Below are positions 1,061 through 64,000 of a stretch of 64,000 bases of DNA, in pieces. Position numbers and translations under genes: made by a program. The DNA comes from an uncultured Bacillota bacterium (GTDB lineage: Bacteria > Sysuimicrobiota > Sysuimicrobiia > Sysuimicrobiales > Segetimicrobiaceae), in NCBI GenBank assembly GCA_963787105.1, contig CAWBBU010000018.1:64082-128081 (forward strand), written 5' to 3'. The notes beneath the pieces are model-generated. The model saw nothing but the letters and a program-made list of their open reading frames with translations, had not been told where the DNA came from and did no database searches. Position 1 is the first letter of the stretch. The number at the start of each line of letters is the position of its first letter.

Positions 1061-1218
1061 CCGGTTCCTCCACAGCTGCGTCCGGCGCGTCGGACTGCCG
1101 CGCGACGTCGGGCAGCGCCTTCAATTGTAGAGGAAAAATGCCGGGGGTGAACAGGTCCGCGCCGGCTCCGAGCATCGCCCGGCCCGCCGCGGACGGGCGC
1201 CCTCGGCCTGGCGCGGGA

Positions 1219-2655: not shown

Positions 2656-2696
2656 CGAGCCTCGGCGCGCGTCGAGTCCGCCTCGGGCCGCCGCCG

Positions 2697-2723
2697 GCCC
2701 ACCGGTACGTTCCACCGGTGGGC
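2697..2723. other. GC-rich hairpin (10-bp perfect stem, 7-nt loop) between the methyltransferase gene and sthA
   Basis: GCCCACCGGT-acgttcc-ACCGGTGGGC read directly. It sits about 45 nt upstream of the sthA start on the minus strand. No U-tract follows, so function (terminator or 5'-UTR element) is unknown. Confidence 0.4.
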
Positions 2724-2948
2724 AACCGAAAACAGTATACACGCGACAGCAGGTTATCGGACATGGTCGCCCCAGAAAGCGCCGCGGACGCCCGCAGGTA
2801 CGACCAGAATACGCGCCGCCTGTTATGCCCCGCGTCGAATCAGCGTGAGGTCTCTGTTAAGAACAGACGAACGCTTTGGCCGGCGGGATCACGCAGTTTC
2901 GGGAGGCGGACGGTGGAACGCCGACACGTGCCCGGTTCGGGGGACCGC

Positions 2949-3530
2949 TCACCCGGCGAAGGTGATCTCGACGGGGGGGTGGGTCTGCAGCTCTCGCAGC
3001 GGCGCGCGAATCGGCTTCACGGCGCGCATCTCGCAGACCATCTCCCGCACCACGTTGCGGTGCGACTTGACCTGTTCGATGATCGTCTTGACGTCCATGC
3101 CCGCGTAGGCGGCGCGTTCCACCAAGAGCAGAATGCGCACCGCGTCCCAGTCCCCACGGTAGCCGTAGTCGGCCCGCCAGTAGTGCGGCTGGCCGAAGTA
3201 CCCGAAGGTCCCCGGAAAGCACAGACGCACGTGCGTGGGATCCTCCGACCCGTCGTCGCTCGCCCCGTGCGGCACGCGAATCGTGGCGACGGCGCCCGGC
3301 TTGGCCACCCGGTGCAGCTCCTGCATCATCGGGAGCGGCGCGCGGATGTGCTCGAGCAGGTGCGAGAGCAGAAACTCGTCGATGCTGTCGTCCTCGATCG
3401 GCAGGGGGACCTCGGCGCAGCGCTCGAGATCCGCCACGATGTCGACGCCGGGCAGCGGATAGATATCCAGGTTGAGCCAGCCCTCGATGATGTTCCGGCC
3501 GCACCCGACGTTGAGGCGCCGTTCAGCCAC
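2949..3530 (-). CDS. Class I SAM-dependent methyltransferase (type 11 domain)
   Basis: 193-aa ORF. LNVGCGRNIIEGWLNLD (motif I) and IDEFLLSHLLEHI (post-II) are typical of small SAM methyltransferases. Confidence 0.75.
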   Translation of the reverse strand: MAERRLNVGCGRNIIEGWLNLDIYPLPGVDIVADLERCAEVPLPIEDDSIDEFLLSHLLEHIRAPLPMMQELHRVAKPGAVATIRVPHGASDDGSEDPTHVRLCFPGTFGYFGQPHYWRADYGYRGDWDAVRILLLVERAAYAGMDVKTIIEQVKSHRNVVREMVCEMRAVKPIRAPLRELQTHPPVEITFAG

Positions 3531-3548
3531 GACGCCGCCCCGCGCGGT

Positions 3549-4235
3549 TCAACTGGGTTTGCCCGCTTGGACGATCTCGATGTGGGTGATCTTCACCGGC
3601 GTGAGCGGCCGGTCCTGAGCGTTCCGCGGCATGCGCGCGATCTTCTTCACCAACTCGACCGACGCGTCGTCGCACTGGCCGAAGATCGTGTACGCGCCCT
3701 GGGGGGGATTGAGGCCCGGCTGCGGGGCCTCCGTGATGAAAAACTGGGACCCGTTGGTGTTCGGGCCGGCGTTGGCCATCGCGAGCCGGCCGGGGCGGTC
3801 GAAGGTCAGGTCCGGACGCAGCTCGTCCGCGAACTGGTAGCCGGGACCGCCCATGCCGGTGCCCATCGGGTCACCGCCCTGAATCATGAACCCGGGGATC
3901 ACCCGGTGGAAGATCACGCCGTCGTAGAGCGGCCGGCCGTGCACCACTTTCCCGGTCGCCGGATCGGTCCAGTCCTTGGTCCCGTCCGCGAGGCCGATGA
4001 AGTTCTTGGACGTGACCGGCACCTTGTCGACGAAGATCTCGCATCGAAGGTCTCCGGCGGTCGTGTGGATGATCGCGGTCGGGTTGTGAGACGCTGGCGC
4101 GGGCTGCGCTGCCGACATCTGTTGTCCTCCAGGTTCGACCGTGTGGTACAGAGCGGTCTGCCCGCCCGCGGCGCCGGCCAGGGCCGGCACGGTCACACAG
4201 GCGAGCAGCATCCATACAATAGCGCGAATTCGCAT
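3549..4235 (-). CDS. Secreted cyclophilin-type peptidyl-prolyl cis-trans isomerase
   Basis: ORF 3549..4346, with the start at ATG 4235 giving signal peptide MRIRAIVWMLLACVTVPALAGA. FHRVIPGFMIQGGDP, GGPGYQFADE and MANAGPNTNGSQFFIT are cyclophilin hallmarks. Confidence 0.9.
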   Translation of the reverse strand: MRIRAIVWMLLACVTVPALAGAAGGQTALYHTVEPGGQQMSAAQPAPASHNPTAIIHTTAGDLRCEIFVDKVPVTSKNFIGLADGTKDWTDPATGKVVHGRPLYDGVIFHRVIPGFMIQGGDPMGTGMGGPGYQFADELRPDLTFDRPGRLAMANAGPNTNGSQFFITEAPQPGLNPPQGAYTIFGQCDDASVELVKKIARMPRNAQDRPLTPVKITHIEIVQAGKPS

Positions 4236-4424
4236 CGCATCCCTCTCCTGAGCACCCGTCATCGTGTTCGCCGGTCCTCGTGACCTGACGGGGCCGCCGC
4301 GCTGGACCCGCGACCCCGTGATATGCCACGCCCCAACGTCTCGCACCTGCTTATGTACACAACGGGAATCGACAACGCAACCACCGGCGGCGTCCGCGCG
4401 CCGCGGGAGAACCGCGCGGCGGCC

Positions 4425-6153
4425 TCACGACCTCCCGGCCGCGGCCCGCGCCGCCCGCCACGCGTCGATCGCGGTGACGATGGTGGGCGTCGGTTCGAGC
4501 GCGCCGAACCGGTCGCCCGCCGTCGCCGCCAGGATCAACTGTCCGCACCGGGTAGCGCGCGTGCGCCACCCGCAGGCTGATGCCGTCCCGCTCGAGCCGG
4601 TCGGCGAGATCCTCGAGCATCGCCACCGCGGCGAGATCGATCGCCGACGCCCCTTCCAGGGTGAAGACGACGAGCTTGATCGGCCGCCCCGCCCGCTCCA
4701 CCGCGGCCGTCGCGGCATGGCGCACGGCGGACGCGTTCGCGAAAAAGATCGCGCCGTCGACGCGGAACACCAGCACCTCCGGAATCTCCTCGTTGTGCGG
4801 GGCGTGGGCCAGATCGGTGAAGGTGTCCGGTGCCCGGGACGCGGCCGAGGATGGCCGTGGGCGGGTGCGCCGCGCGCGCGATGAGCATCACGACCGACGC
4901 GATCACCCCGACAAACAGCCCCCGGAGCATCCCCAAGACGAGCACGCTGAGCAGCGCCAGGACCGCGATCCGAAACTCGGGGGGACTGGCGCGGCGCGTC
5001 CGGCCCAGCGCCCGAAGGTCGATCAGACCCGCCGCGGCCACCAGCACGACCGCGGCCAGAATCGGCTGCGGAAGATTGCGGAACAATCCGCTCAGGAACA
5101 CCAGCACCGCCGCGATCAGCGCCACGGCCACCAAGCAGCGCCGCGGGCGTCCTGGCGCCGCTGGCGTCGTTCACGGCCGACTGGGACATGCCGCCCCCGA
5201 CGGGGTACCCCTGACCGAACGCGACCGCCGCATTGGCGACGCCCAAGGCGAGCAGCTCCTGGTTCGGATCGATCTCGTCCCCGTGCTTCGCGGCGAAGGT
5301 GCGGGCGACCGCCATGCTCTCGACGTAGCACAATAGAAAGCAGGCGAGCGCGAGCGCGAGCAACGTGTCGAGGTCCGACGGCGTCACGCCGGGAAGCGCG
5401 AGGGCCGGCAGTCCCTGCGGAATCCGCCCGACCACGTCGACCCCGTGCGCCGCGAGCGAGGTCATCGACGCGAACACGATGGACAGCACCACGACGACCA
5501 GCGACACGGGACGCCGGGGAAAGAGATGTCCGCCGGCGACCAACAGGATGATGCCGGCGAGCCCGACCGCCAGCGCGGGCGGCTTGGTCTCTCCGAGATG
5601 TCGCACGAGAAACACGATGCGCGGGATGAAATTGCCGCTGCCCCCCGGGATCCCGAACAGCTTCGGCAGCTGCGTCGAGGCGATCTGCAGCGCGACCCCC
5701 GCCTTGAACCCCACCAGCACCGTGTCGGCGATGAAGTTGACGATCACTCCCAAGCCGCAGCGCCCAGGCGAGCACGCACGCGCCCGCCACCATGATCGCC
5801 GTGGTCGCCGCGAGGGCCGCGTAGCGTGCCGGATCGCCGGCCACGAGCGTGCCGAGCGTCGACGCCACGAGGATCGAGATTGATGAGGTCGGGCCCACCG
5901 CCATCTGACGCGAGCTGCCGAACACCGCGTAGGCGAGGGCGCCGAGCATGACGCAGTACAGGCCGACCTGGGACGGCAGTCCGGCGAGGGACGCGTAGGC
6001 GAGTGAGACGGGAATCGTGAACGCCGCGAGCGTCAGGCCGGCCACGATGTCGGGTCGCAGCCACGCGGCGTCGTAGTCCGGCAGCCACCGGGTGATCGGC
6101 AGGACGGTCTTCAACACCATCGGCCAGCGGGAGTGGGAGGAGGACGACGCCAT
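4425..6153 (-). pseudogene. SulP-family anion permease with C-terminal STAS domain, broken by about 4 frame changes
   Basis: The protein runs through four listed ORFs. 5116..6153 carries the N-terminus (LRPDIVAGLTLAAFTIPVSLAYASLAGLP). 4425..5753 carries FIADTVLVGFKAGVAL. 4535..5134 carries LPQPILAAVVLVAAAGLIDL. 4351..4776 carries the STAS part (LVFRVDGAIFFANA). The tail returns to the 4425 frame. Breaks are near 5750, 5150, 4820 and 4555. Confidence 0.8.
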
Positions 6154-6438: not shown

Positions 6439-9056
6439 CTAGCTGCACTGAAATCCGACGCCCCCGCAGAGGGTCGCCATCAGCACGCCCTTGTCGACGC
6501 TTCCCGTCCGGTAGGTCCGGCACGTAAACCCGCCGGCGCCCGTCGGAATGAACGTCGCGGGCGGGTTGTCGGGGTTCGCGGTCGTGTTGAACGCGACCAT
6601 GCCGTGGTGGCCGCCGCCCGCGGTGTAATTCGGGCTCACGAGCCACTGCCGGCCGGCGCCGTCCGTGTAGACGTCGATCCCCGGGGCGGCGAGCGGATTG
6701 TTCGTCGGGTCGGGGTCCCCGGTCGCGGTGAGCTGCCCGGTCCGCCGCATCGTGGCCGGATTGTAGACGCGAATCCCGAGGTCGCCTTGGCTCACGTAGA
6801 TCCGCTGGCTCGCTTTGCGGATCTCGCAGATCCCGCCCGCGGCCGGGATGAACGACCCGCCGACGTTGGGCGGGTTGCCGAACCATCCCGCGTGCGGGGA
6901 CGCCAGCGTAATGGCTTTGGTCGACGCCGGCAGGCCGACGGCCCCGGTCACGGGCGACGGGCCGAACGTCTGGGGGCTCCCCATGTACTGGTACTGCCCG
7001 TACACGTTCAGCGTCGCCGCGAGCGGCGGCACCGCCGGGAGGCCCGACACGATGATCGCATTCGACGGATTCCGCAGCGTCATGGCGTTCGAGAGCGGCG
7101 ACATCCCGCAGCACACGCCGAAGGAGTCGAAGTACGCGATCTGCACCTGATACGTGAACGGCGTCTCGACGCTGCCGCCGGAGCCCGCGGCGATGTGCGG
7201 CGCCGCCACGGCCGTCAGCAGCCGGTCGGGGATCCCCTCGGTCACGATCGGCGCGATGACGCCGAGGCGGCCGACGTCAAACGCCATGACGCCGAGCGCG
7301 GAGTCCGAGACCCAAAGTGTCGAGCCGGGCACGCCGCAGGCGCCGTCGACGAACAGCCCCGTCGTCCCCTGGGTGCCGGACGGCCCCGTGTACGCCCCAA
7401 CGGCCGTGAGCGCGTAGTACGGCGCCGACCCCACCGCGTAGGTCACGATCTTGAGCCACGCCGTAGGCGTTGACGACGGCGCTCAGATACTTCCCGTCCC
7501 ACGCGGTGTTCACCAGCGTCGCATCGCCGTAGCACACGAGCGGCGTCATCGCGCCGCCCCGGCACTGGAACAGGTAGTCGTAGCCGTTCCCGGCCGCGCC
7601 CGGCGCGATCCGCAGGGTCGGGTCGGTGCCGCCCGCCGTGGTGCCGAACGCCTGCAGGCGGCTGCCGATCAGGGTGCCCACCGAGCCGGCCATGATCAGG
7701 TTGTCCTTAGGATCGTGGACCTCGTAGGAAAAGCGGCACGTCGAGTACGCGTATTCGACGGGGTCGCCGACGACCGTCGTCGCTTGCCGCGTCTCCGCAT
7801 TGGCGTAGCACGTCTGCAGCACCGCGACCCGGCCGCCGGCGGCCACTTTCGACACATCGTACACGATCGTCCCGCCCGGTCCGCCGTTCGCCCTCGGACG
7901 AGAGCGCAAACTTGGTCCCGTCGGGGCTGACCGCCGTGTCGACCGCCGGACACGAGACGGTGCCCCCGGGGCCGGCCTGCGTCCATCCGGGGATCGTGGT
8001 GAGCAGGCTCAGCGCGTCCGCGGGCCCGATCGCGAGCACGTCCGTCCCCGATTGATTCACGTCGCCCCACGTCGCGTACAGGAGATTGTGCACCGGGTCG
8101 AATTTGAGCTGGCCGTACCCCGTCGCGCGGGCGGGCGCGCGATACGCGGCCGCGGGGCCGAGCAGCCGCGGGGCCGTCGGCGTCGTAATGTCGTACGTCT
8201 GAATCACGCCCGCGTTCGCGGCGTACAGACGGCTGCCGTGGGGCACGCCGACGTGCAGATTCGGGATCGTGGCGAGGCGGGTGGCCGGCGGTCCCCCGGC
8301 GACGAGCAGCGCCAGATTGAACAGATACAGGTTCCCCGTCGCGTTGTCGCAGCACACGAGCCGCTGGTTGGCCCGGTCGATCTCCATGCAGTAGACGCCG
8401 CTCCACGCGTCCGTCGACTGGAACGTGTACGTCGCCCCGGTCTGGATGTTCGTCGCGGTCAGCGTCCCCGGCGTCCCATCGTGCGCCAGGTAGACGTAGG
8501 TGGCGTCAATCTGCACGGCTTGGCTGATCGTATTGAACGACTTGGGCCAGTTCGCATTCGCCATCGCCATGGTCGTGCCGTTGAGCACCTGCGCCTGCGG
8601 CACGACCGTGTTGTTCACGGCCACGTACCCCTTGAACTGGGCGCTTTTTCGCGGGTTGCTGTACACGGCGTTGTTGCACGCATAGGACAGCACCGTACTC
8701 TGCCCGCTCTGCGTGTCGATGCGGATGATGCCGGTGTCTCCCTCCTGCGTCGGGACGTACAGATAGCGGCTGTCGTCACTAAAGGCCGGGCCCCCCGCGA
8801 ATCCCTGGAAGCTCGCTCTCGTGACCGGCCCGATGATCGCCGTTCCGGCGTAGTTGCCGTACACGGTCATGTCGCGCAGCTTCCGCCAGGTCCCCGCGGT
8901 CGCGGTCGTCGATGTCGTCGTGGCGCTCGTCTTGGTACTGGACGCGGCGGAGGCCTCTCCGCCCATCGTCTCTCCCAAACCGATCGCGACCGCCGCGGCG
9001 ACGCCGTGTCGAAGGAAATGCCTGCGGCTGTAGACAGACCCAGCAGCGTGTGTCAT
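6439..9056 (-). CDS. Large Tat-signal secreted beta-propeller-like repeat protein (about 870 aa), two apparent frameshifts
   Basis: ATG at 9056 gives MTHAAGSVYSRRHFLRHGVAAAVAIGLG (twin-arginine motif), then a Thr/Ser-rich linker. Repeated YVTN/NHL-like blades follow (YVYLAHDG, NLYLFNL, RLYAANAGVIQTYD, LLYATWGD). Reading continues through ORFs 7707..10079, 7277..7909 and 6439..7446, with breaks near 7895 and 7460. Confidence 0.6.
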
Positions 9057-9386
9057 CGCACCGATGCCTCCCCGGAGCTCATCTGGCGGTGACCTAGTGT
9101 GGACGGTGCACGCGGTCGGAGCCGTTCGCGCGGGCGAATGTCGGTCCGCCCGCGCGCCGTGACCGCGTGTCGTCGGCCTTCCCGACGATACAACACCGCA
9201 CCGGCGCCGTCGTTCACCTCGCGATTGCGCGCCGCGCGTCCGACTCGTATATGCCCGCGCCCCCATTCGTCTGGACGCCGACAGACACAAATCTTTATTT
9301 TTTCCGCGCGAGTCGGCGCGCCCGCGCGTCTGAACCGCGCCGGCGCACGGTATAAGGCAGGATGCACGGCCGGGGAGCGGCTCGGG

Positions 9387-9971
9387 ATGACGCGAAGACG
9401 ACAGATCGCCGCGGGACGCAGGCGGCGCCCATCGGATTGGGGTGAGAGCGGATTCACCCTGGTCGAGACGATGCTTGGGATCGTGCTGCTGACGTTCGGG
9501 CTCCTCGCCGTCGCGGATGTCTTCCCGCACGGCTTGGCGCTGTCGGCCTACGGGCAGGGCCAGACGGAGGCGGCCGACCTGTCCGAGCGATGGATCGAGG
9601 ATCTCAAAAGCGCGCCGACCACGACGCTGACCCAGGACCTGGGCGATTACGGCACGGTGCCGAGCCTCTATTTTGATCAGAACGGCAGCGCCACGACCGC
9701 CGCGAACGCGGTCTTCACGGTGGACCTCCAGATCCAGTCCTGGATCTGGGATCAGAGCACCGGCCAGTATGTCGCCTCCGCGACCCCGTACAGCGTGCCC
9801 GGCTCCGGCGCGTACGTGTACCGCGTGTCCGCGGCCGCGCACTGGCTCGTCAACGGGCACACCGCGTTCACGTCCGGGAACGCCGGCGCGCCGAACGGGT
9901 GCGTGGCCGGCGGCGCCGCCGTGCCGGAAGGAGCGGGCTGTGTCCAGACGAGCACCTTTGTCACCCCGTAG
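9387..9971 (+). CDS. Prepilin-type N-terminal cleavage/methylation domain protein (PilV/GspH-like minor pilin)
   Basis: Internal ATG 9387 of ORF 9099..9971. Leader ...GESG followed by FTLVETMLGIVLLTFGLLAV (G-1, F+1, E+5). Confidence 0.75.
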   Translation: MTRRRQIAAGRRRRPSDWGESGFTLVETMLGIVLLTFGLLAVADVFPHGLALSAYGQGQTEAADLSERWIEDLKSAPTTTLTQDLGDYGTVPSLYFDQNGSATTAANAVFTVDLQIQSWIWDQSTGQYVASATPYSVPGSGAYVYRVSAAAHWLVNGHTAFTSGNAGAPNGCVAGGAAVPEGAGCVQTSTFVTP

Positions 9972-9991
9972 GGCCCCGCCGCGGCGCGCCG

Positions 9992-10653
9992 GTGAGCGGG
10001 GGATGACGGTCATCGAGCTGATGACCGTGCTCCTCGTGTTCTCGCTGATCATGGGTGCCTTGTCGTCGCTCATGATCACCAGTCTCGACGTCTACTCCAA
10101 GGGCAGCGTGAGCACGCAGGCGCAGGCCAGCGTGCGCATCGCGCTCAGCCGTCTCGTGCGCGAGGTGCGCCAGGCGCGCCGTCTCATCACCGGGACTGGC
10201 GAACCCGCCAACGGCGGGACGTTCACGTTCGAGACCGCGTGCGGCCCCGCGCCGCAGATCAGCTTCGCCCTGCCGCACACCGCGGTCTACGCGCTGTCCG
10301 ACGGAACGACCGCGTACGCCACCGACGCGAACGCGGTCGGCGCGAACCCCTACGACGGCTGGTACGTGAGCTACTATCTGTCGGCGGCGCAGGCCGCCGG
10401 GACGCTGCCTCCCGCGGCCAATGCGTCGGGACCGTACGTCATCCGCGTGCAGTACGATGTGACCGCGAACCAGCTCTCGTACGGGACGGTGGCGGGGGGC
10501 GTGACGGCGCTGACGCTCGCCGCGCACGGCAGCTGCCCCACCGTGAGCACGCGCAATCTCTCCATCACGGTCGCGGGCTCGGCGGCGGCGGTGAACGAGG
10601 CGGTGAGCTCCACCGATGTGGTCGCGAGCGATGTCACCCTCCGCAACCAGTAG
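9992..10653 (+). CDS. Prepilin-type minor pilin (PilW/GspJ-like)
   Basis: GTG 9992 gives VSGG followed by MTVIELMTVLLVFSLIMGAL (E+5), then ...SVRIALSRLVREVRQARR, typical of PilW/GspJ-type pseudopilins. It begins 21 nt after the previous stop. Confidence 0.7.
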
Positions 10654-10705
10654 GGGCCGCGCGCCGGCGCGGGCGATCGGGCGGGCCGTCCGCTCGGACG
10701 ACGGC

Positions 10706-12340
10706 ATGACGTTTCTGATGACGCTGCTGGTCGTCTTCTTTGTGAGCATGATGCTCCTCGCGTTCCTCTTCATGAGCCAGAGCGGCGTCTGGTTTGCGGC
10801 CAACGACCGGAACAGCACGATCGCCCTGAACCTCGCGGAGGCCGGGGTCCAGGAAGCGCTCAACCGGATCCGCGTCTCCGGCGTCGGCGGCACGGGCGCG
10901 TTCACGAACAGTCTCGCGAGCAGCGCGGCGTCGCCGCACAGCACCGGCACCGTGTCGCTCGAGGCCGCGCTGGCGACGAACCCGACGATCGTGCCGATTC
11001 TCTCCGTGGCCGCGTACGGCGGCATGACGCGCGCGACGCGGGTCCTGGTCCAGGCGGCGTACCAGACCGGATTCGCGAACGCGGTGCAGGCCCCGCTGGT
11101 CGTGTTCCAGGGCGACGTCTCGGCGATGACGGGGGACGCGTACTCGCAGTCCAGCGTGACGTTTCAGAACTATCAAGACGTCCCCCGCACCGGCCTCGGG
11201 CGCGAGCGCGATGAACCTGATTTCCCCTCAGGTGATGGCCGGCAGCGACGTCACGACCCAGGGAAGCGGCCCGGGCGACTTTTTCTTCGAGTGCGCCAAC
11301 GATTCGACGACTGAAGTCGCGCCGACCCCGTGTCTGCGGCAAACGAACCTGCCGGTCAACTGGCATCCGGACACCCCGCAGGGAATGCCGTCCGCGGACT
11401 TCGCCGCCGTGATGCTGCAGTGGCAGGGCAGCAATGCGAACCTCCCGAGCGGCGTGCAGGTGGTGGAGGCCACGCAGAACGGCGCCGGCGTCACCTACAC
11501 GTCCGCGGGGACGTACACGCCGACCTATTGGACGGCCCTCACCGCCACGGCCGGACAGGTGATGCTGGTCGTGGATACGAGCGGCCCGTTCTGCGTCAAC
11601 GGGGCGAGCGTCACCGCGGGGGTCTGCGCCGGCCTCGGCACCGTCTACGGCAGCGTCTCTGGCGGCGGCGCGGTTGAGCGCTACCTCGACTGGGGTCTCG
11701 TCGCGGACGATCTCAGCCGGCCCGCGGCGACGACGTTCTTTCAGGCGCCCACCTGCGCGGCGTGCGATGCCGGCGGCCCGAACGGTCTTCAAAACGGCAT
11801 CCGCTACGTATCGCCGATCCCCGCCGTCGACGTGCTGGGCATCGCCTGCGGCAACAATCTCGCGCCGGGATTCAGCGCATTCTACAACGCGTCGGAAGAC
11901 GGGACGGCGTGTGCGACCCCCCCGACGCTCGTCGGCAGCGGCGCTTTCACCGGGACGCAGAACAACCCCGAGTTCCTCGTCATCGACGACGGCGCCCCAG
12001 GCGGCGCCGGGGTGACGATCACCGGCTCCGGCCGCGCGAGCGGATGCGGCGACAACTTTGCGTCCGCCAACTGGGGGGTGATCGTCGCGACGGGAGACGT
12101 GACCTTGAATAACTTCTCGTTCGACGGCGTCATCTACGCCCTCGGCAGCGTGTATAGCCAGGGCCATACCTACATTAAAGGCGGGGTCTTCTCCGCCACG
12201 CCCTGTCGACGACGCAGGTCGACCAGCTGGGCGGCACATTGACCTTCTGCGGCGGCGCATCCGTCGGCGTCCCCATGGCCGCGACGTTTTTCAATTTCAC
12301 GGCGATGTCGTGGGTGGACCGCCCCGCAGGGCAGCCCTGA
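10706..12340 (+). CDS. PilX-N-terminal-domain protein (large pilus-associated protein), two apparent frameshifts
   Basis: ATG 10706: MTFLMTLLVVFFVSMMLLAF...ALNLAEAGVQEALNRI (PilX_N-like). It continues in ORF 11211..12242 after a break at the C5 run 11182-11186. The tail ...LSTTQVDQLGGTLTFCGGASV...DRPAGQP ends at TGA 12338-12340, after a break near 12200. Confidence 0.6.
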
Positions 12341-56509: not shown

Positions 56510-57930
56510 CACCAACCCGGGGTGTTTCGGGAAGCGGGAATCCGCCGCGCGCGCGTTCGTAGATCCCCGCAACACCGAGCACGAGATCATCGTGCAGATG
56601 TCGTCCCACCGAGCTGCAGGCCTACCGGCAGACCCTCCTCGCTGAGCCCGCACGGCACCGAGACGGCGGGGTGTCCGGTGACGTTGAACATCCAAGTGTT
56701 AGCCGCGTGGAGATCTGGGGTCTCGAGCTCGCAGCCGTGCCACAGATAGGTCATCGCGCCAAGGGGCTTGGCGGTGATGGGCGTCGTCGGCAGCACGAGT
56801 AGGTCGACGCGCTCGAACAGCTCGGCATAGGCGGCGCCGATGTGCCCTGAATCTCGCTGAAACGATCCATCACTTTGCGCCGCTTGCGCCGGAGATTGGC
56901 CCTAATGTAGGCCCGGTAAGATCCCGGCGTCGGCGCCTTCCGCATCATACATTTCCCACTCGTTCAGCAGGGTGATCTCGTCCCACAACGCGATGTCGAA
57001 CATCGGAAGCCTCACCGACTCGACGAAGATGCCGGCCCCGGCACCCGCCAAACTCTCAACTGCCGCCTCCACCCGGGCACCTACGTCCGGCTCGGACCGA
57101 ACTGTCCCCCGCTCACGTCGAAGCCCAGCCGCACCGCCCCGAAGTCGGGGTGCAACACCGCAGACAACGCAGCGGGTGGCGGTGCGTCAAGGGACGTCGG
57201 GTCCAAGGGATCGCGGCCCGCGAGCACCTCTAGCATGAGCGCGGCGTCTTCGACCGTCCGCGCGAGGGGGCCGACGTGTTCGAGCGCCGTGGCCATACCG
57301 AAGACGTCGCCATGCTGGCTGACGCGACCGTAGGTCGGCTTGAGCCCGACGACGCCGGTGAACGCGGCGGGGATACGGATCGAACCGCCGAGATCGGTGC
57401 CGACGCTCCCATAGCTCGTGCCGATCGCAAGGGAGACCGCAGAGCCGCTGCTCGATCCCCCGGGCGTGTAGGTCGGGCCGCCACGGATTTCGGGCCGTGG
57501 GCAGGCGCGCGCTATCCGCGTTGGTGCGGGACATCCCGCTCCCGACGTTCGCTTTTGCGACCACGATGGCACCGGCGGCGGTCAGGCGCTGGACGCAGGT
57601 CGCGTCTTCCTGGCGAGCCGGCGCGTAGTTCGAAAGGCTCACGGTCCCGACGGTCGTGCGGGTCCCGCGCATCAAAAACGCGTCCTTCACCGTCACGGGT
57701 ACGCCGTGGAGCCGACCGAGTGGGCGGCCAAGGCTAACATCCTCATCGGCGCGGCGCGCTGCTTCGCGGGCCTCGTCGGTGGGCGCCGAGAGATGCGCAT
57801 GATGGCGGGGTCAAGCACCGCGGCACGCGCGAGACAGGTGTCCACGAGTTCGGTGGAGGACACCTCTCCGCGCCGGATCAGGTCCGCCGCGACGGCAGAG
57901 AGAACATTCGGTCCTGCGCCACCTCTTACC
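56510..57930 (-). pseudogene. Amidase-signature amidase, decayed paralogue of 25096..26523 (many frame changes)
   Basis: Fragments lie in ORFs 57187..57696 (VKDAFLMRGTRTTVG), 57081..57572 ([50 protein letters not shown]) and 56587..56796 (LPTTPITAKP...NVTGHPAVSVPCG...GLPVGLQL). By eye they are about 70% identical to the intact amidase in the signature block. Confidence 0.75.
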
Positions 57931-58010
57931 CACCTCCCGTCCGGGGCACATCGTAGACGCGCCGCACTACAGGCAGCGGACCGCGCGACGTACGTCTGAG
58001 CCCGGTCCGG

Positions 58011-58801
58011 CTACAGGTCGCGAAGATCCGGACGGTCCACCAGTTCGATGCGCACGCCATCTGGATCGCGGATGATGCCGATGCCCCCAAACCGGTGCCA
58101 GCCGGCTTGGGGCTGTCGGGTTCCGGGGTCACACCCTGCGAAGCGAACCGGTCGAGGGCCGCGTCAACGCTCTCGACGCGCAGCGCGATGTGGCCGAAGA
58201 TGTTGCTCGTAGTGTCGGGTGTCGGCCGGTGCAGTAGCTCCAGCACATCGTACCCATAGTGGTAATATAGAATCGTCTGCTGACGCGACGCCACGTACAT
58301 CTCCTTGAGGACCTTCATGCCGAGGGGCCGTCCATAGAAGTCCTTCGCCGCCGCGAGATTGTTCGCACGCAGCGAGTAGTGGTCTAATGACTGAATAATC
58401 CCCGGCGCGATCGGCGCCATCCGGAAGTCGGGGTTGCGCTGGATGAGCTCGACCCGGGCGCCGTTTGGGTCGCGCACAAAGGCGAGGCGGCCGACGCCCG
58501 AGCCGGCGACCTTGGGCGCATCCAACGCCTCCGCCCCCGTGTCGACCAGCATCTTATAGTCGTCGTCGAGCGCGTCTGACAAAAAGGCCACGTGGGTGAT
58601 CCCGAAAACCTCGTCCCGCGGCGGGCGAACGGCGGTGCAGCGACTCGATCATACCGCCAGTGATCTGGCGAATACCACGTCGGTCTGGCTCGATGGGATG
58701 ATCCTGCGGGAGATTTCCTTGGCGCCGAGCACGTCTCGATAGAACGCGAGCGTCGTGTCCAGGTTCCGTATCACAATGCCGTAGTGGTTAATCTAGATCA
58801 T
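58011..58801 (-). pseudogene. Two-domain VOC (glyoxalase/bleomycin-resistance/dioxygenase) protein with in-frame stops and frameshifts
   Basis: Reading from ATG 58801: MI-TAG-INHYGIVIRNLDTTLAFYRDVLGAKE..., then a TGA and a frame change, then ORF 57926..58591 (LAFVRDPNGARVELIQ; LDHYSLRANNLAAAKDFY...FGHIALRVES). The tail GIGIIRDPDGVRIELVDRPDLRDL lies in another frame and ends at 58011-58013. Confidence 0.65.
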
Positions 58802-58859
58802 GACAGAGTCTCCTTCGCGGTCCCCGCATCACGCGAGATTGAGCGTTCGCCGTCTCTCG

Positions 58860-59690
58860 TCAGGACACCTGCGCGCTCCTTGCTGACGGCGTCTTCGCAT
58901 CGCGGAGGACCCGAGGAGTGACCGTGATCTCGGGGATGTGCATCCGCTCCGGGCAACTCAGCGGCCAGATGAAGATGTCGGCGATGTCAGACGGCCGCAG
59001 CGTTAGCGCCACGTTGCTCTTCAGACGGTGACACCAGCTTATGCCCTCAGACGGTCGTATTGACCGGTCCTGGGCTAACCGAGGTCACGCGAATGCCGGA
59101 ATTGCGGTATTCCTCGATGCAGGGCTCCCCATCCGCGCCCGGGCTCCGTACGGTGAGGACCTGATCGAAACCGTCGGGCGAGCATTTGGCCGAATCCTTC
59201 ACGTGCACGCACCTGACGCTGTTCCGGAGCTGTCTCCACGTGTAGACGCCCGACTCGCCGTAGCGGTACGTGTGCAGGGTTTCCAGAGGATCCCGAGTGG
59301 GTCGCTCGCGCCGCGGGCGTACAGATCGACAATGCGGTTGGACGTTGAAAAATAGTCGCGGGTCTCAAGAAGGCTCATGACACCATGCGTGCGGGTAACC
59401 TCGGCGATTTGGGTCAGTCCCGCGGCGATGGCCTCGATTGTCGCGTCGAAGTCCTGATCCTTGGGAATCGGACCCCCAAACACGCGCATGAAACGGCCCC
59501 GAGCGCCTCGGCAAATGAAAGGTTCTGCCGGGTAGATTCTGCGTTACCGACGAGACGCTCGCCCTCGTCAAGCGAGTTCATCCGGACGCTGATGCCGAAG
59601 TAGGGTCGAGGGTTGGCGCAGTGCTTGGGTCTAAGCAGCAGTCTTTCGGCCCTGTCCATCTCTGACGATGGCGTGCAGACCCCGACGGCT
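58860..59690 (-). pseudogene. Remnant of a xylose-isomerase-like TIM-barrel gene (5'-truncated, several frame changes)
   Basis: The pieces ...FGISVRMNSLDEGERLVGNAESTRQNLSFAEALGA / MRVFGGPIPKDQDFDATIEAIAAGLTQIAEVTRTHGVMSLLETRDYF / LGILW..LHTYRYGESGV...VHVKDS lie in different frames. Confidence 0.4.
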
Positions 59691-59695
59691 GCTCG

Positions 59696-60001
59696 GTACA
59701 AGTCTGGTTCCGACCCCCGCCACCTCGAACCCGGACGTGCGGGTTTCCCGCATCCGGCTCTCCTGCCCACTTCACACCAAGGGTTATGAGACCTATCGAA
59801 CTGGGAGTGCTTTCGGGAGCGCCGGCACGTGTCGGACTCCGTAATCGTCGTACAGGCCGAGTGTGCCGTAGATCCACTCCCTACTCCACCTCTTCCAGCC
59901 GAAGCCTGGTCGTTTTGCCGCTCTCGCAAGGTGGCGCCGTACTTTCTTCTCGATCCAGTACCGCAGACCCGTGAATTGCCGACTGGCGTGACCGATGCGG
60001 A
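59696..60001 (-). mobile_element. 3' segment of the outer group II intron (end of its RT/maturase ORF, domain V, domain VI)
   Basis: ORF 59793..60161 carries RIGHASRQFTGLRYWIEKKVRRHLARAAKRPGFGWKRWSREWIYGTLGLYDDYGV, a group II maturase C-terminus. A near-canonical domain V lies at 59727-59760. The 3' boundary (59650-59700) is approximate. Confidence 0.65.
59727..59760 (-). ncRNA. Group II intron domain V (outer intron)
   Basis: Minus strand GAGCCGGAUGCGGGAAACCCGCACGUCCGGGUUC, compared with the consensus GAGCCGUAUGCG..GAAA..CGCACGUACGGUUC. It has one extra G in the 3' strand. Confidence 0.7.
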
Positions 60002-60126
60002 GTAGAGTAAGGAGTTGGCGCGCCGCGTAGCTCAGCCAATAGGGGTACAGCCTGTCCACCTCCGTCGGTGGCTTGCAGCCTCCAGCCCTCGTCCCGGGCG
60101 ACACACGTTTCCAACTCCTCCTCATC

Positions 60127-60159
60127 GATCCGAGCATGACCTTTTCGGTCACTCGGCTC
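60127..60159 (-). ncRNA. Group II intron domain V-like hairpin (inner intron)
   Basis: Minus strand GAGCCGAGUGACCGAAAAGGUCAUGCUCGGAUC, 12 nt after the RT stop. It has the AGC triad and a GAAA loop, but the third base pair is G-A instead of G-U. Confidence 0.55.
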
Positions 60160-60170
60160 ACCGACGCCCT

Positions 60171-61493
60171 TCACCGACGGTTTTCGCTCCGCTCGAACCG
60201 AACGCTTCCGACCAAGCGGATCAATCCGACGCGGTTGCCGGACATGACGATGTACTTCATGCCGCGCCCGCGTCCGTTCCGCCCGTGTCGTTTGGAGAGC
60301 AGCAGCGCCATTCGTTCGACCGTGTACCGGTCCAACTTGGCGAAGCAACGAGTCGAGTTGCCGTACCGATAGTACTCGCGCCATCCCCCGAGAAAACGAT
60401 TGAGGTCGCCCACAACCGTGTGCGTGGGGACATGGCGTCGATTGCGCCCGGTGAGTTCCCGGATCCGAGAACGGCACCGGAGCACGGCTTTGGCACTCGG
60501 CCAGCACGCCGGATAGTGGAAGCTCGGTCTGCGCCGCGAGGGTACCATCTGATGATGGAAACCCAGGAAGTCGTATCCCTTGCTCCCACTCGCTACTCCG
60601 ACGATCTGCGTTTTGGAGCCGGACAATGCCAGCCCCAACTCTTCCAGGGTCGTTGCCAGGGCCGCCTTTGCGGCTTCGGCCTTCTCCCGAGTTGAGCAGC
60701 AGATGCAAAGATCGTCAGCGTAACGCACGAGCGTCCCCAGCAGGTGATGCTTCGTCATCCAGGCTTGGTCCAAACGATGCAGGACCACGTTAGCGAGGAC
60801 TGGCGAGAGCGGCCCGCCCTGCGGGGAGCCCGCCGTCGGGGTCGTCAGCGTACCGCTGTCGAGTATCCCGGCGGACAAGATGCACCGAATGAGCTCTACG
60901 ACCTTCCGGTCGCTGATCCGCTCCCGGAGGCAATCCAGGATGCGGCCATGCGCGAGTCGATCGAAGCAGCTCTCGATGTCGGCGTCCACTACCCATGTCC
61001 TTCCTTCCCGAATCGCCTCCCGCATTGCTTGCAATGCTTGGTGGGCGTCTCGCCGGGGCCGAAACCCGTACGAGCAGGGCAGAAAGTCCGCCTCGAAGAT
61101 CGGTTCGATGACGATCTTCAGCGCTTGCTGGACCACCCGGTCCCGCACATTCGCGATCCCGAGCGGTCGGAGCTTGTCCGGCTTGCCCGGTTTGGGAATC
61201 CAGACTCGCCGCAGCGGCTGCGGACGATACGTTCCGTCTCGCAGGCTGGCCTCTAGGTCCTCAAGGAACTCCTCTACACCGGCCGCTTCAATATCCGCGA
61301 TGGTGATGGCATCGTTTCCCGGTGCTCCCTGGTTGGCGCGCACCTCCAACCACGCGCGCCGGAGAACATCCCTGCGATGGACCCGGTCATATAGCGCGTG
61401 GAAACGTCGATTCGGCGACCGCTTGGCCGCCTGGTACAGTTTGTGTTGGAGGGTCCGAACCTTATCGAGGGTGTTGTTGGGCCTTGCGGCCAT
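60171..61493 (-). CDS. Group II intron reverse transcriptase/maturase (RT + X domains, no En domain seen)
   Basis: ATG 61493 within ORF 60171..61592. RPLGIANVRDRVVQQA, SYGFRPRRDAHQA, DADIESCFD, SPQGGPLSPVLANVVL, VRYADDLCICC (YADD) and LGGWREYYRYGNS are present. The frame is intact. Confidence 0.9.
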   Translation of the reverse strand: MAARPNNTLDKVRTLQHKLYQAAKRSPNRRFHALYDRVHRRDVLRRAWLEVRANQGAPGNDAITIADIEAAGVEEFLEDLEASLRDGTYRPQPLRRVWIPKPGKPDKLRPLGIANVRDRVVQQALKIVIEPIFEADFLPCSYGFRPRRDAHQALQAMREAIREGRTWVVDADIESCFDRLAHGRILDCLRERISDRKVVELIRCILSAGILDSGTLTTPTAGSPQGGPLSPVLANVVLHRLDQAWMTKHHLLGTLVRYADDLCICCSTREKAEAAKAALATTLEELGLALSGSKTQIVGVASGSKGYDFLGFHHQMVPSRRRPSFHYPACWPSAKAVLRCRSRIRELTGRNRRHVPTHTVVGDLNRFLGGWREYYRYGNSTRCFAKLDRYTVERMALLLSKRHGRNGRGRGMKYIVMSGNRVGLIRLVGSVRFERSENRR

Positions 61494-62064
61494 GCACCAG
61501 TTCCCCCCTCTCCCACAACACGGACGAAGCAGGGGCCCTTTGCTCCAGCGGGTTATGTTGTCCCGCCGGTCATCGCTACCGTATGGCCCCATCCGACGCC
61601 CTCCCGGCTCAGCGCGATTTCCCGTTTGGCGGTTATACGCACCGGCTGCTCCTGGATCGCAGACCCAGGGCCGGGGAGGGCCTCTCCAGTTCCCGTCACC
61701 ACCGTCCGAACGTTCCGCGCCCCTTACGGCGGAGGGTTCTTCGGCGTTGCGCTTCCAGGCTCTTCACGCCTTCCGTGGCCTTCGCCCTGTTACTCCGGGC
61801 TCGGCTCCCCCTTGGTCCCTTTCGGGCTGGTCTAACGCCGCGGCAGGCTTCGCGTAATGCTGCGGACCGTTCGCTTGCTACCTCCGTGAGGCTTCCGACG
61901 CTGGGCTTCGACGTCAGGCGTTTCCCCCTGACGCCGCCAGCCTGCTACCAGGCTCCCTGGCGATTACCTGGGCGGGACTTTCACCCGCTGGCGGTGACGA
62001 GCTTACGGGCTACGCGCTCACACCGACACCACCTCCCTCCGTCGCGCGTGCCCTCTGGACACGC

Positions 62065-62545
62065 AGTAGTTGAGCCATCCCGCAAGGATGGGGTTCACCT
62101 CGCCTGGATGACTCGCTGCACCGGCTGTGAGCGGTGGTGCCGGAAAGACCTCCCGGATCTTCTGCCGGAGTTCAGTGCATTTGTGGCGTGTCGGCGTGTA
62201 CTGCGGTCGCCACACGCCGCGATAACTCCGAATCCGGCGAAAATCGAACCCGAGGAACGTAAATGTCTCCTCCCGCTCGAGATCCACCATGCGGCTCTTC
62301 TGCTCATTGACCTGGATACCGAGCTTCGCGATTTCTTCCCGGATTCGCCGGTTGATCGCCTTGAGTAACCAGTCGTGCCGTGTGTGCGCGTCAACCAAGA
62401 TGACCATGTCGTCTGCCCACCGCGCGTACGTCACGTTCGGGATGGAGCCCCGCCGTGTGGTCTGCCGCGCCTTCTCCAACATCACATCGACCGGAGTCAG
62501 ATAGATATTGGAAAGCAAAGGTGACAGGACTCCTCCCACGCAAGA
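62065..62545 (-). mobile_element. 5'-truncated body of the outer group II intron RT ORF (RT domains 4-7 and start of X)
   Basis: ORF 62018..62653 carries GGVLSPLLSNIYL, YARWADDMVILV (YADD) and FLGFDFRR...EVNPILAGWLNY, then runs into the inner intron 5' end. No RT domains 0-3 and no intron domains I-III lie upstream. Confidence 0.65.
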
Positions 62546-64000
62546 GATAACCCGTGGGGGAAGTTGAAGTGGGGATCGAGTGTTTAATGGTAACCGTGTC
62601 GGCGCTGATCTCCACTTGCTTGACGACCAATCGGAGTACTCGCTGCTGATCACCGATTGAGAGAGTTTGGCTCGCCGTTTTGAGACGCACGAGAAATGTT
62701 TCGAGGCTTTCTGTCAACTGCAAATAGCGCTCCGCGTCGACCAGTTCGGTCTCTAACGCTTCGGTCTGCGCCTGTAGGGCCACTTCGCGGTGTCGCAGTT
62801 TCGGCATCCGCTGCCGCAATTCAGCCAACTCCATGAAGCCCTCTTGGTAGACCTCGATGAGACGCGACCGGGCGCTCCGCACACGGTTGAGCTCCGCGAT
62901 GAGTCGATCTTTTCTGCCGACAGCTGGATGCGTCTTGCGCAAGGCCTGCTGCCGACGATTGATCTCCTGGTGCATGAGGGATGGGTCCGCGAGCAACGCG
63001 GTCACATGGTCCCACACTAACGCATCAAGATAGTCCTGGCGGATGGGCGCATTGCGACAGACTCGCCCCTGTTCCCACCGGTAGTCATCGGAGCCCAGGC
63101 AGCGGTAATAGTAGAGCTTGCGCCGCGACGTCCGGGTCGAGGTGCGATAATAGGCGTACCCGCACTGCTGGCACACCACCAGGCCTTGCAGCAACGTCGG
63201 TTCCTTGGTGTGTCGCGCGGCAAAGTGCAGGTTGTCCTGCAAACGCTGTTGGGCCAAGGCAAACTGCTCGGCCTCGATGATCGCTGGGACCGGAATCGCA
63301 ATCCAGTCCGTGCGCGGCCGCGGCCGCCCCGTTCTCCGTCGCGGGACGGTGGCGCCACGGAGCCGGAGGCGCCGTGTCACGCGTCCCGGCGTCTCGATCA
63401 CCCCGGTCTTGCCAAAGCACGCGCGCCCTTCATACGCGGGATTGCGCAGAATCCCCCACACCGTACTCCGGTCCCACCGATGCTTGCCCGTATATGTTGG
63501 GATGCCCTGCGTGCCCAGCCGGACTGCGATCCGACCGATACTGAGTCCCTCCTGCGTGTACCATTCAAAGACGGTGCGGACGACCGCGGCCTGCTCTTCC
63601 ACGATCTCGTAGCGCGCCGGCAGATCCTCGGTCCGCCGCACGTACCGGTAGCCGTAGGGCGCGCCGCACAGTACGTTCACCGAGCCCAAGCGAGCGCGGT
63701 GCACTTTCCCCCGCCGGGTCCGTTCCGTAATCTGCGCCTTCTCGTATTCGGCAATCATCCCTTGAAACTGCACGAGCAACTCCTGCTCCGGTCCTCCGCC
63801 CGCCGGTGTATTGAGAAATTCGATCGCCGCGCCGCTGCGGGCAAACTCCTCCATCACCAGAATTTGGTACGCATATTTCCGGCTGAGCCGATCAGGGGCG
63901 AAGACCAGGACCCGTTCGACCGCGCCATCAGCGACGAGATCCCGCAACCGTTCAAGCGCCGGCCGCGCTAAGGTCGCCCCACTGTACCCCTCATCGGCAA
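62391..64000 (-). CDS. Large serine recombinase; 5' end (catalytic Ser) lies beyond the window, true 3' end uncertain
   Basis: ORF 62391..63947, and the frame stays open to 64000 (ADEGYSGATLARPALERLRDLVADGAVERVLVFAPDRLSR). It has a resolvase-domain end, a recombinase domain (WDRSTVWGILRNPAYEG) and a zinc-ribbon (CQQCGYAYYR...YYYRC). A coiled-coil tail runs to ...TVTIKHSIP near 62565; codons after that are probably read-through into the intron fragment. Confidence 0.85.
   Translation of the reverse strand, partial: ADEGYSGATLARPALERLRDLVADGAVERVLVFAPDRLSRKYAYQILVMEEFARSGAAIEFLNTPAGGGPEQELLVQFQGMIAEYEKAQITERTRRGKVHRARLGSVNVLCGAPYGYRYVRRTEDLPARYEIVEEQAAVVRTVFEWYTQEGLSIGRIAVRLGTQGIPTYTGKHRWDRSTVWGILRNPAYEGRACFGKTGVIETPGRVTRRLRLRGATVPRRRTGRPRPRTDWIAIPVPAIIEAEQFALAQQRLQDNLHFAARHTKEPTLLQGLVVCQQCGYAYYRTSTRTSRRKLYYYRCLGSDDYRWEQGRVCRNAPIRQDYLDALVWDHVTALLADPSLMHQEINRRQQALRKTHPAVGRKDRLIAELNRVRSARSRLIEVYQEGFMELAELRQRMPKLRHREVALQAQTEALETELVDAERYLQLTESLETFLVRLKTASQTLSIGDQQRVLRLVVKQVEISADTVTIKHSIPTSTSPTGYLLRGRSPVTFAFQYLSDSGRCDVGEGAADHTAGLHPERDVRAVGRRHGHLG

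Follow-up and report, generated by a model that had tools for sequence, protein, structure and literature searches.

Why does a reverse transcriptase (RT) gene on this stretch of DNA break off inside its maturase domain, resume about 2 kb further on, and appear to lack its first half altogether? The stretch (hereafter the window) comprises 64,000 nucleotides (nt) of contig CAWBBU010000018.1 from an uncultured Bacillota bacterium, and every feature of the nest described here lies on its minus strand. Twintrons, where an intron lies inside a second one, have been established for Euglena plastids and a handful of prokaryotes. We read the locus as a layered stack of mobile elements on a single group II intron, produced by homing of an inner intron, insertion of a recombinase element and decay, and we put the probability of this reading at about 0.88. 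The outer intron, of the Rfam D1D4-4 type with an endonuclease-less RT, would have carried its RT/maturase gene in the loop of domain IV. An independent inner intron of the same Rfam type would have retrohomed into that gene, and a recombinase element of about 2.2 kb would split the same gene at RT motif 4, where it could not be removed by RNA splicing. The coordinates of all features are collected in Table 1.

The earlier note on this DNA had proposed that a group II intron sits inside the maturase open reading frame (ORF) of another group II intron, and this proved correct to the base. When position 62065 is joined to 60001, the outer RT reads ...NPILAGWLNY-F-RIGHASRQF (...EVNPILAGWLNY-F-RIGHASRQF) in the frame that had been predicted, with the insertion point between the first and second bases of the Phe codon that follows GWLNY, and the Pfam GIIM domain extends across the junction (4.2e-12). 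A total of 2700 homologues were found for the joined protein, the best of them uninterrupted, with identities of 55–74% and coverage of up to 100%, and the junction Phe is invariant in 18 of 18 aligned sequences. At the DNA level, the closest uninterrupted relatives (L080 and L081; loci are designated by L numbers) contain the unbroken empty site, GGGTGGCTCAACTACT followed directly by TCCGAATCGGTCA (GGGTGGCTCAACTACT followed by TCCGAATCGGTCATGCC). An origin of the two RT fragments from unrelated genes had been named as fatal to the proposal; the fragments are contiguous in the homologues and in the L080/L081 DNA. If the inner intron is spliced, the ligated junction would be CTCAACTACT-TCCGCATCGG.

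The boundaries of the inner intron are fixed by the invariant Phe codon, by the L080/L081 empty site and by identical termini in about 60 differently flanked copies. Boundaries moved by ±1 or ±2 nt in favour of a canonical GUGYG start were considered and rejected, as they replace the invariant F with L, C or a stop (L or C at ±1 nt) and would also make the last two intron bases follow the host codon. The inner and outer RTs share only 27% identity and are therefore separate elements. Removal of the inner intron restores the outer RT ORF, and the outer domains V and VI are found downstream, which is the arrangement of a twintron.

The inner intron begins with GCGUGUCCAGA and ends with ...CCUUACUCUAC. 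Introns were typed at the level of the Rfam D1D4 subtype, and the domain I segment of the inner intron (group-II-D1D4-4, 61990–61855) is the sole Rfam match over the gathering score in the whole window. The Infernal comparison with domain V/VI models that the earlier note had suggested gives RF00029 matches in both introns, the inner one at 60161–60002 in E-value mode (39.4 bits, E 2.4e-5). The domain V part of this alignment has high posterior probability, and in the minimum-free-energy fold it forms a canonical domain V, whereas domain VI forms a long helix in which A60008, a single bulge 7 nt from the 3' end, is a candidate branch point. The 3' terminus is AC, in agreement with the AY of group II introns; the 3' ends read in other copies of the lineage are mostly ...CCCUCC, not ...UAC. 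The approximately 95 extra nt in domain VI are a trait of the inner lineage that is kept in close relatives.

The inner RT/maturase is encoded in domain IV, where it is expected in a group II intron, and has no DNA-binding/endonuclease domain. Its relatives are 440 amino acids (aa) long with identities of up to 93%, and an exact-protein look-up of the inner RT of the window matched no record. Compared with five other copies, the ratio of nonsynonymous to synonymous substitution rates (dN/dS) is 0.13–0.17, and the inner RT lineage is under purifying selection. The full intron layout proposed beforehand (2063 nt, an intact YADD RT/maturase and a domain V-like hairpin) is borne out by the D1D4-4, RF00029, RVT_1 and GIIM matches, and the inner intron looks intact by all sequence criteria and potentially mobile. 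We infer that it splices and retrohomes from the 46 distinct insertion sites of its lineage, the empty sites and the presence of near-identical copies at different loci.

The 5' terminus of the inner intron reads GCGUG and departs from the group II consensus GUGYG by a U2 to C change. A boundary error or an indel had been suspected here, and neither applies: GCGUG is the conserved terminus of the whole lineage and starts every copy. At the aligned position, the outer intron of a related nest (L001) has the canonical GUGCG. The two bases that follow the intron change with the host codon (TC, TT, AC or AT, giving F or Y) and intron positions 1–2 are always GC; the boundaries and the U2 to C terminus are therefore genuine. 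We regard GCGUG as a lineage-specific variant and would not exclude the inner intron on this ground, given that it shows the remaining ribozyme, ORF and mobility features that were tested, with exon-binding site 2 (EBS2) as a tentative assignment. A search of one paper library for GCGUG termini returned nothing relevant.

Site choice by the inner intron is predicted to depend on the EBS1 loop AGUA, which would pair with the exon sequence UACU. This intron-binding site 1 (IBS1) occupies the final 4 nt of the 5' exon (62068–62065), and EBS1 is presented by the hairpin GCCCGG-AGUA-ACAGGGC, so that both the domain I and the EBS1–IBS1 pairing of a group II intron are found. Among 27 distinct exon/intron combinations, the EBS1/IBS1 pair is AGUA/UACU in 15, AAUA/UAUU in four, UGUG/CACA in three and AGUA/UAUU (with a G·U pair) in another three. 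Overall 95.4% of the cells are paired, changes on both sides occur at three of the four pairs, and none of 500 shuffles reaches the observed score, compared with only 26–50% of cells paired in slid controls. The stem of the EBS1 hairpin covaries too (C-G to G-C in 10 sequences). The homologous loop in the L001 outer intron, CCCUCAA, is complementary to UGAGG in the 5' exon of the same intron. The search for further copies of the inner intron that had been called for has thereby yielded, besides the shared termini, a defined EBS1/IBS1 pairing.

A second contact beyond EBS1 is likely. The sequence GGNTGG (−16 to −11) persists at sites outside RT genes as well (L004, and L007 where it lies one base further upstream), and it is probably also recognised, either via an EBS2-like CCAGCC/CCAACC at about intron position 235 or via the protein. 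The EBS2-like sequence, which overlaps a small hairpin, matches GGNTGG perfectly in L005 and L015. EBS3/δ was also sought in the alignment, where nothing pairs convincingly with the +1 position. The predicted homing target of the inner intron is GGATGGCTCAACTACT followed by TCCGC.

Genomes and metagenomes were scanned with the inner 5' end (GCGTGTCCAGAGGGCRCGCGC), giving 17 and 52 loci, respectively. With one duplicate locus and one chance 21-mer removed and at least 19 nt of upstream sequence required, the set consists of 61 copies of the inner lineage with 46 distinct 5' flanks. Thirty-five of these flanks end in the codons G-W-x-x-Y plus T, typically within the maturase context ...LNPxLRGWxxY. 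Three flanks end in W-N-D-Y in relaxase genes, four in (Q)RC(W/Q)xH and then ACA (an IS256-like transposase context as read by eye), and four were classed as 'other', two or three of which resemble decayed maturase sites. Wherever both flanks could be read, an F or Y codon is made whole by the 3' exon, which then runs on into the remaining maturase domain; RVT_1 and GIIM were found across the junction in L005, L015, L036 and L064. The host introns belong to the D1D4-4, D1D4-3/-1 (L009) and D1D4-2 (L020) types, and the host organisms to Actinomycetota, Chloroflexota and others, including soil metagenome-assembled genomes (MAGs). The G-W-x-x-Y maturase codons of diverse intron RTs would thus be the regular target of the lineage, with occasional near-cognate sites in transposase and relaxase genes.

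Five loci were left out of the set. L012, the chance match, has no intron homology beyond the 21-mer and a flank read by eye as ribosomal-protein-S11-like coding sequence; L008, L010, L016 and L019, which start with GUGCG or GCGCG and whose flanks are unrelated, are introns of other kinds and were not counted.

Several observations were made on individual members of the lineage. L022, L043, L058 and L068 form a sub-lineage at the (Q)RC(W/Q)xH plus ACA sites, with UGUG as EBS1 in the three members whose loop is readable (L022, L058 and L068), and look like a retargeted branch of the inner intron family. The host genes of L003 and L006 are transposases that encode W-x-x-Y and then F or Y at the matching DNA sequence. 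The non-RT exon of L003 reads WINY followed by YNNRRPHSAL and gives a weak rve_3 match, and that of L006 is the N-terminus of an IS4 transposase (Nterm_IS4 and DDE_Tnp_1). In L034 and L046, a MobA/VirD2 relaxase as 5' exon (…HIHIVATLARQDG…WNDY) is combined with the latter half of a GIIM maturase domain, of two different types, as 3' exon, and L007 and L023 have a common 5' flank with different 3' flanks. Three-level nests were found in L015 (~1834–3858, minus strand) and L018 (~92–2116, minus strand), where the inner-lineage intron in a GWAAY maturase site itself contains a further ~2 kb at position ~485, a short way upstream of its ORF; this insert starts with GUGCG, matches D1D4-3 weakly and brings domains V and VI of its own. 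In L020, a D1D4-2-type intron with its own domains V and VI (950–2829, minus strand) is located about 690 nt upstream of the inner-lineage copy, and two different introns apparently lie inside one host RT gene.

The same nest was found in L001 (CAWDRG010000015.1, a 503-kb MAG contig labelled uncultured Firmicutes), which has 90% identity to the window from 62527 to 59708. The outer intron of L001 is complete, with a GUGCG 5' end at 1811, a D1D4-4 motif at 1838–1976 and a full-length RT ORF from 2334. This RT is interrupted between GWLNY and F by the inner intron (3427–5493), after which the outer domains V and VI follow. Another contig of the same MAG (L013) contains a second copy of the nest, again with a complete outer intron, and a solo inner copy (L007) was found in this MAG as well. 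In an intact twintron of the L001 type, the outer RT would be translatable only once the inner intron has been spliced from the outer intron RNA. The inner RT of L001 (4001–5323; P0121, from a cluster of 26 sequences) has YCDD where that of the window has YADD.

Between the window and L001, the inner parts share 92% identity with a synonymous divergence (dS) of 0.27 in the ORF, compared with 85% and a dS of 0.51 for the outer parts; dN/dS is about 0.15 for both RTs. The divergence of the outer introns therefore predates the inner copies, and separate homing events into already divergent outer introns are favoured.

What remains of the outer intron in the window shows both its identity and its decay. 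The first segment of its RT ORF shares 85.5% nucleotide identity with the L001 outer RT with two indels, and the second segment 85% with L001 5496–5786. The indels are a +1 insertion at ~62146 and a +2 insertion at ~62105–62106 relative to L001, and about 13 codons between them are out of frame (FPAPPLTAGAASHPG vs FRQHRSQPVQRVIA). The domain V assigned to the outer intron at 59727–59760 is real, though it contains an extra G; the RF00029 match covers 59762–59600 (34.2 bits, below the gathering score; E 4.5e-4) and places the putative 3' end, ...CGACCCUAC, at 59600. Neither limit drawn for the feature in the earlier note holds: the outer intron extends past 59696 to near 59600, and 62545 is superseded as the upstream limit by the serine-recombinase element, which splits the outer RT at motif 4 at ~62530 and would leave the outer 5' half beyond the window. 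Neither outer domains I–III nor an N-terminal RT were found anywhere in the 64-kb window. This copy of the outer intron is in decay: two indels shift its reading frame, and its domain V is altered. Owing to the recombinase insertion and the indels, it cannot produce its own RT. Both insertions fall within the ORF loop of domain IV. Given transcription and help in trans, the ribozyme core might nevertheless fold.

Homology to the outer RT starts at ~62530 (GGVLSPLLSNIYL, RT motif 4), and immediately upstream lies a recombinase ORF that runs off the end of the window, with its N-terminus, including the catalytic Ser region, cut off. Resolvase (PF00239), Recombinase (PF07508) and Zn_ribbon_recom (PF13408) domains were identified in this recombinase. 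All recombinase homologues end in ...GYLLRGRS, which is encoded exactly at the junction by the terminal attachment (att) arm (TGGGAGGAGTCCT). The element is documented by its right junction in the window, by two lineages with both RT halves (L075, and L076/L077) and by L079. The gene order in L076/L077 (recombinase 61% identical) and in L075 (55%) is RT N-half, small ORF (83–116 aa), recombinase and RT C-half. The element is about 2.2 kb long and consists of the recombinase and one ORF of 83–119 aa, for which only sub-threshold Pfam matches to helix-turn-helix/ribbon-helix-helix (HTH/RHH) families were found. At the DNA level, RT motif 4 is split into ..CAAGGTGGCCCGCTG on one side of the element and CTCAGCCCGCTGCTG.. 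on the other.

The termini of the element are conserved in L075, L076 and L079 (left ACTCCNCCCACRCAA, right TGTGGGAGGAGTC), and the joined ends give a near-palindromic, attP-like site; the predicted circular junction is ...GGGAGGAGTCCT-ACTCC.... The corresponding empty attB, an uninterrupted ..PQGGPLSPLLSN.., is found in the L001 outer RT and in L080/L081. In L079, a recombinase 94% identical to that of the window ends in a different and more diverged RT copy, which points to an independent integration; the L079 sequence begins 4 nt before the conserved left terminus. We infer that the element integrates and excises. With the element in place, the missing 5' half of the outer intron is predicted from ~64.7 kb onward, outside the window. 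Our search of one paper library found no report of serine recombinases that target intron RT genes, and the recombinase element in the RT gene is the item at this locus most likely to be genuinely new.

The loci with the element (L075 4836–8134, L076 637–4082, L077 and L079) all have it in the same orientation as the RT, and the recombinase ORF continues across the att site to enter the RT in a different frame. Judged by this alternative-frame signature, a heuristic, read-through into RT-like sequence occurs in 27 of 100 close homologues of the recombinase. A second group of homologues (P0262, P0278, P0305–P0308, P0320 and others) has a different common tail, H(H/D)(P/S)SLR(C/S)P(L/F)..., which hints at a second conserved integration target, not RT, for the recombinase family. 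In L075, three consecutive tyrosine-recombinase (Phage_integrase) genes adjoin the recombinase/RT locus (8200–11373), with a HEPN_AbiV gene nearby.

Several observations weigh against the stack as we read it. The RF00029 score of the inner domains V and VI is 0.6 bits below the Rfam gathering score (40), a shortfall that arises because domain VI has an insertion of about 95 nt, and that of the outer domains is about 6 bits below it. The GCGUG start is not the consensus and could in principle impair catalysis, against which its retention across many apparently mobile copies argues. The EBS1–IBS1 pairing comprises only 4 base pairs (bp), and the EBS2 candidate is mismatched at its central position in the window, L001, L004 and L006. 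The 5' and 3' flanks are mismatched in L034, L046, L007 and L023; these loci are therefore shaped by recombination between intron copies as well, and the chimeric flanks suggest that it was ectopic. The 3' end of the outer intron is fixed only to within about 14 nt, with a 14-nt indel at this position in L001/L013. Finally, the outer 5' half and the left end of the recombinase element lie beyond the window, and that the outer intron is interrupted and not truncated is deduced from its relatives.

This last point bears on the alternative that the outer intron is a dead fragment, 5'-truncated by incomplete reverse transcription or deletion, with a recombinase gene next to it by chance. Truncated fragments of this kind are common in bacterial genomes, and the lack of outer domains I–III and of an N-terminal RT in the window would fit. 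However, the breakpoint lies within a few bases of the conserved ...GYLLRGRS end, recombinases of 55–94% identity occupy the same position in RT motif 4, and the RT N-half is present on the other side in L075, L076 and L077. The left terminus of L079 has 4 nt of flank, which are RT-compatible and show no RT N-half, and the left end predicted for the element of the window lies ~2.2 kb upstream, just past the window. We consider a chance truncation very unlikely, and abortive reverse transcription was set aside in favour of insertion of the recombinase element on account of the GYLLRGRS end and of L075–L077 and L079. An assembly chimera or boundary artefact, with unrelated RT fragments juxtaposed or ends off by a few nt, is hardly credible. 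The non-canonical 5' end and the absence of the window's own contig from the collections scanned would be in its favour, but many homologues, and the empty-site DNA too, have the RT fragments joined without a gap, independent assemblies show the same junctions, and the outside dinucleotides follow the host codon with the intron 5' GC held constant.

Unlikely, yet the most serious of the alternatives, is that the nest was inherited or mobilised as one composite unit, with the twintron retrohoming as a whole. The same outer and inner introns are paired at the same junction in the window, L001 and L013, composite retromobility has been listed as a possible route (Mohr et al. 2010, PMC2882425), and gene conversion among inner copies could mimic the dS pattern. 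On the other hand, the inner parts are distinctly less diverged than the outer parts between the window and L001, and solo inner copies are found in the L001 MAG (L007) and at 46 different flanks. We thus prefer separate homing of the inner intron into an outer intron that was also struck by the recombinase element and has decayed.

Beyond this locus, we tentatively propose, at somewhat less than even odds, that at least two unrelated kinds of hyperparasite use the intron RT gene as a common safe harbour, namely a GCGUG 'intron-hunting' group II lineage and the ~2.2-kb serine-recombinase elements. Under this proposal the lineage would span phyla, would be apparently undescribed and would have G-W-x-x-Y followed by F or Y in several intron classes as its native site, and the attB of the minimal element would be the coding sequence of RT motif 4. 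Both kinds of hyperparasite are present in one outer intron in the window, and related loci add a third intron layer.

Nested group II introns and homing into intron ORFs are already known. According to the summary description in PMC4424553, introns of Methanosarcina acetivorans (Dai and Zimmerly 2003) home into other group II introns or their ORFs and form nested arrays. As described there, they resemble the present system in their site specificity, in flanking exons that are not housekeeping genes and in nests that act as perpetual homing sites. At the level of that summary, the Methanosarcina introns are archaeal and enter related introns of one genome, whereas the lineage here is bacterial, occurs in several phyla, targets one maturase codon motif in D1D4-4, -3/-1 and -2 RTs and starts with GCGUG.

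In Thermosynechococcus elongatus, the inner copies of TeI3 in TeI4 are more alike than the outer introns, indicating independent recent insertions (Mohr, Ghanem and Lambowitz 2010, PMC2882425), and the inner parts are more alike than the outer parts here too. TeI3 is ORF-less, relies on the outer intron protein and inserts between the first two ATGs of the ORF (PMC2882425). The inner intron of the window, in contrast, encodes its own RT and sits in the maturase (X) domain, and the outer protein is therefore not completed without inner splicing. The twintrons of Trichodesmium erythraeum (Pfreundt and Hess 2015, PMC4649490) and of Euglena chloroplasts share the intron-in-intron arrangement and sequential splicing, which is predicted here. 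In those twintrons, however, host protein-coding genes are interrupted and the inner intron lies in the ribozyme part, whereas here the setting is mobile-element debris and the inner intron lies in the coding sequence of an intron-encoded protein.

RmInt1 in ISRm2011-2 offers a further parallel, with an endonuclease-less RT and a conserved target within a different mobile element as a safe harbour. Some members of the present lineage similarly lie in IS4, IS256-like and rve transposase genes, although the main target here is the maturase motif and not an IS. The recombinase element resembles phage serine integrases and Tn4451/Tn5397-type elements in its Resolvase/Recombinase/Zn-ribbon architecture and in a recombinase gene that abuts the element end. 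The likeness extends to the near-palindromic attP-like joined ends, the fixed orientation and the absence of a target duplication. It differs from all of these in its very small size and in having its attB in RT motif 4 of a group II intron.

What is new here is an ORF-containing inner lineage found in multiple phyla and a universally conserved maturase codon target shared across intron classes; the conserved non-GUGYG 5' end and a serine-recombinase element with its attB in RT motif 4 are possibly undescribed. Bacterial twintrons have been called rare (PMC4649490). Contrary to this, one whole lineage from soil Actinomycetota, Chloroflexota and other MAGs resides mainly inside other introns, and its landing site is a protein motif that all intron maturases must conserve. 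The nest is an example of competition and parasitism among selfish elements and a natural system for sequential splicing, with an outer protein dependent on the inner intron. It also bears on how a 4-bp EBS1 and extra contacts reach specificity and on the compatibility of a U2 to C terminus with group II catalysis. If confirmed, the attB in the RT gene would represent a new target class for large serine recombinases, and the element a very small natural integrase cassette.

Table 1. Features of the nested locus, in window coordinates.
Feature	Position	Strand	Evidence and remarks
Inner group II intron, complete	60002..62064	-	2063 nt; Rfam matches and junction evidence
Inner domain I segment	61855..61990	-	Rfam group-II-D1D4-4, 102.5 bits, E 9e-22, full-length model match
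EBS1 5'-AGUA-3' in 9-nt loop GGAGUAACA of domain I hairpin	61791..61794	-	pairs with IBS1 UACU
Inner RT/maturase ORF	60171..61493	-	440 aa; RVT_1 1.4e-34, GIIM 8.9e-15 (Pfam); YADD
Inner domain V (GAGCCGAGUGACCGAAAAGGUCAUGCUCGGAUC) with AGC triad	60127..60159	-	RF00029 alignment and fold
Inner domain VI, enlarged by ~95 nt	60002..60123	-	RF00029 alignment; insertion within domain VI loop
Outer RT ORF segment 1: RT motif 4/5 (GGVLSPLLSNIYL...YARWADD) to maturase GWLNY	62065..62530	-	RVT_1 (Pfam), homologues
Outer RT ORF segment 2: (F)RIGHASRQF...PKALPVR and stop	59793..60001	-	GIIM across join, homologue alignment
Outer domain V, one extra G in 3' strand relative to L001	59727..59760	-	RF00029, L001 alignment
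Outer domain VI, ~70 nt larger than in L001	59600..59724	-	RF00029 alignment end, L001/L013 comparison
Right-hand part of large-serine-recombinase element, in outer RT motif 4	62531..64000	-	Pfam, homologues, L075–L077, L079

Downstream of the outer intron, the region 58800–59600 (minus strand) contains only short ORF fragments with sub-threshold Pfam matches to a xylose-isomerase-like TIM barrel and a short-chain dehydrogenase, and the locus looks like a graveyard of mobile elements amid decayed genes. An intact glyoxalase-family ORF was found further on, at 57926–58591.

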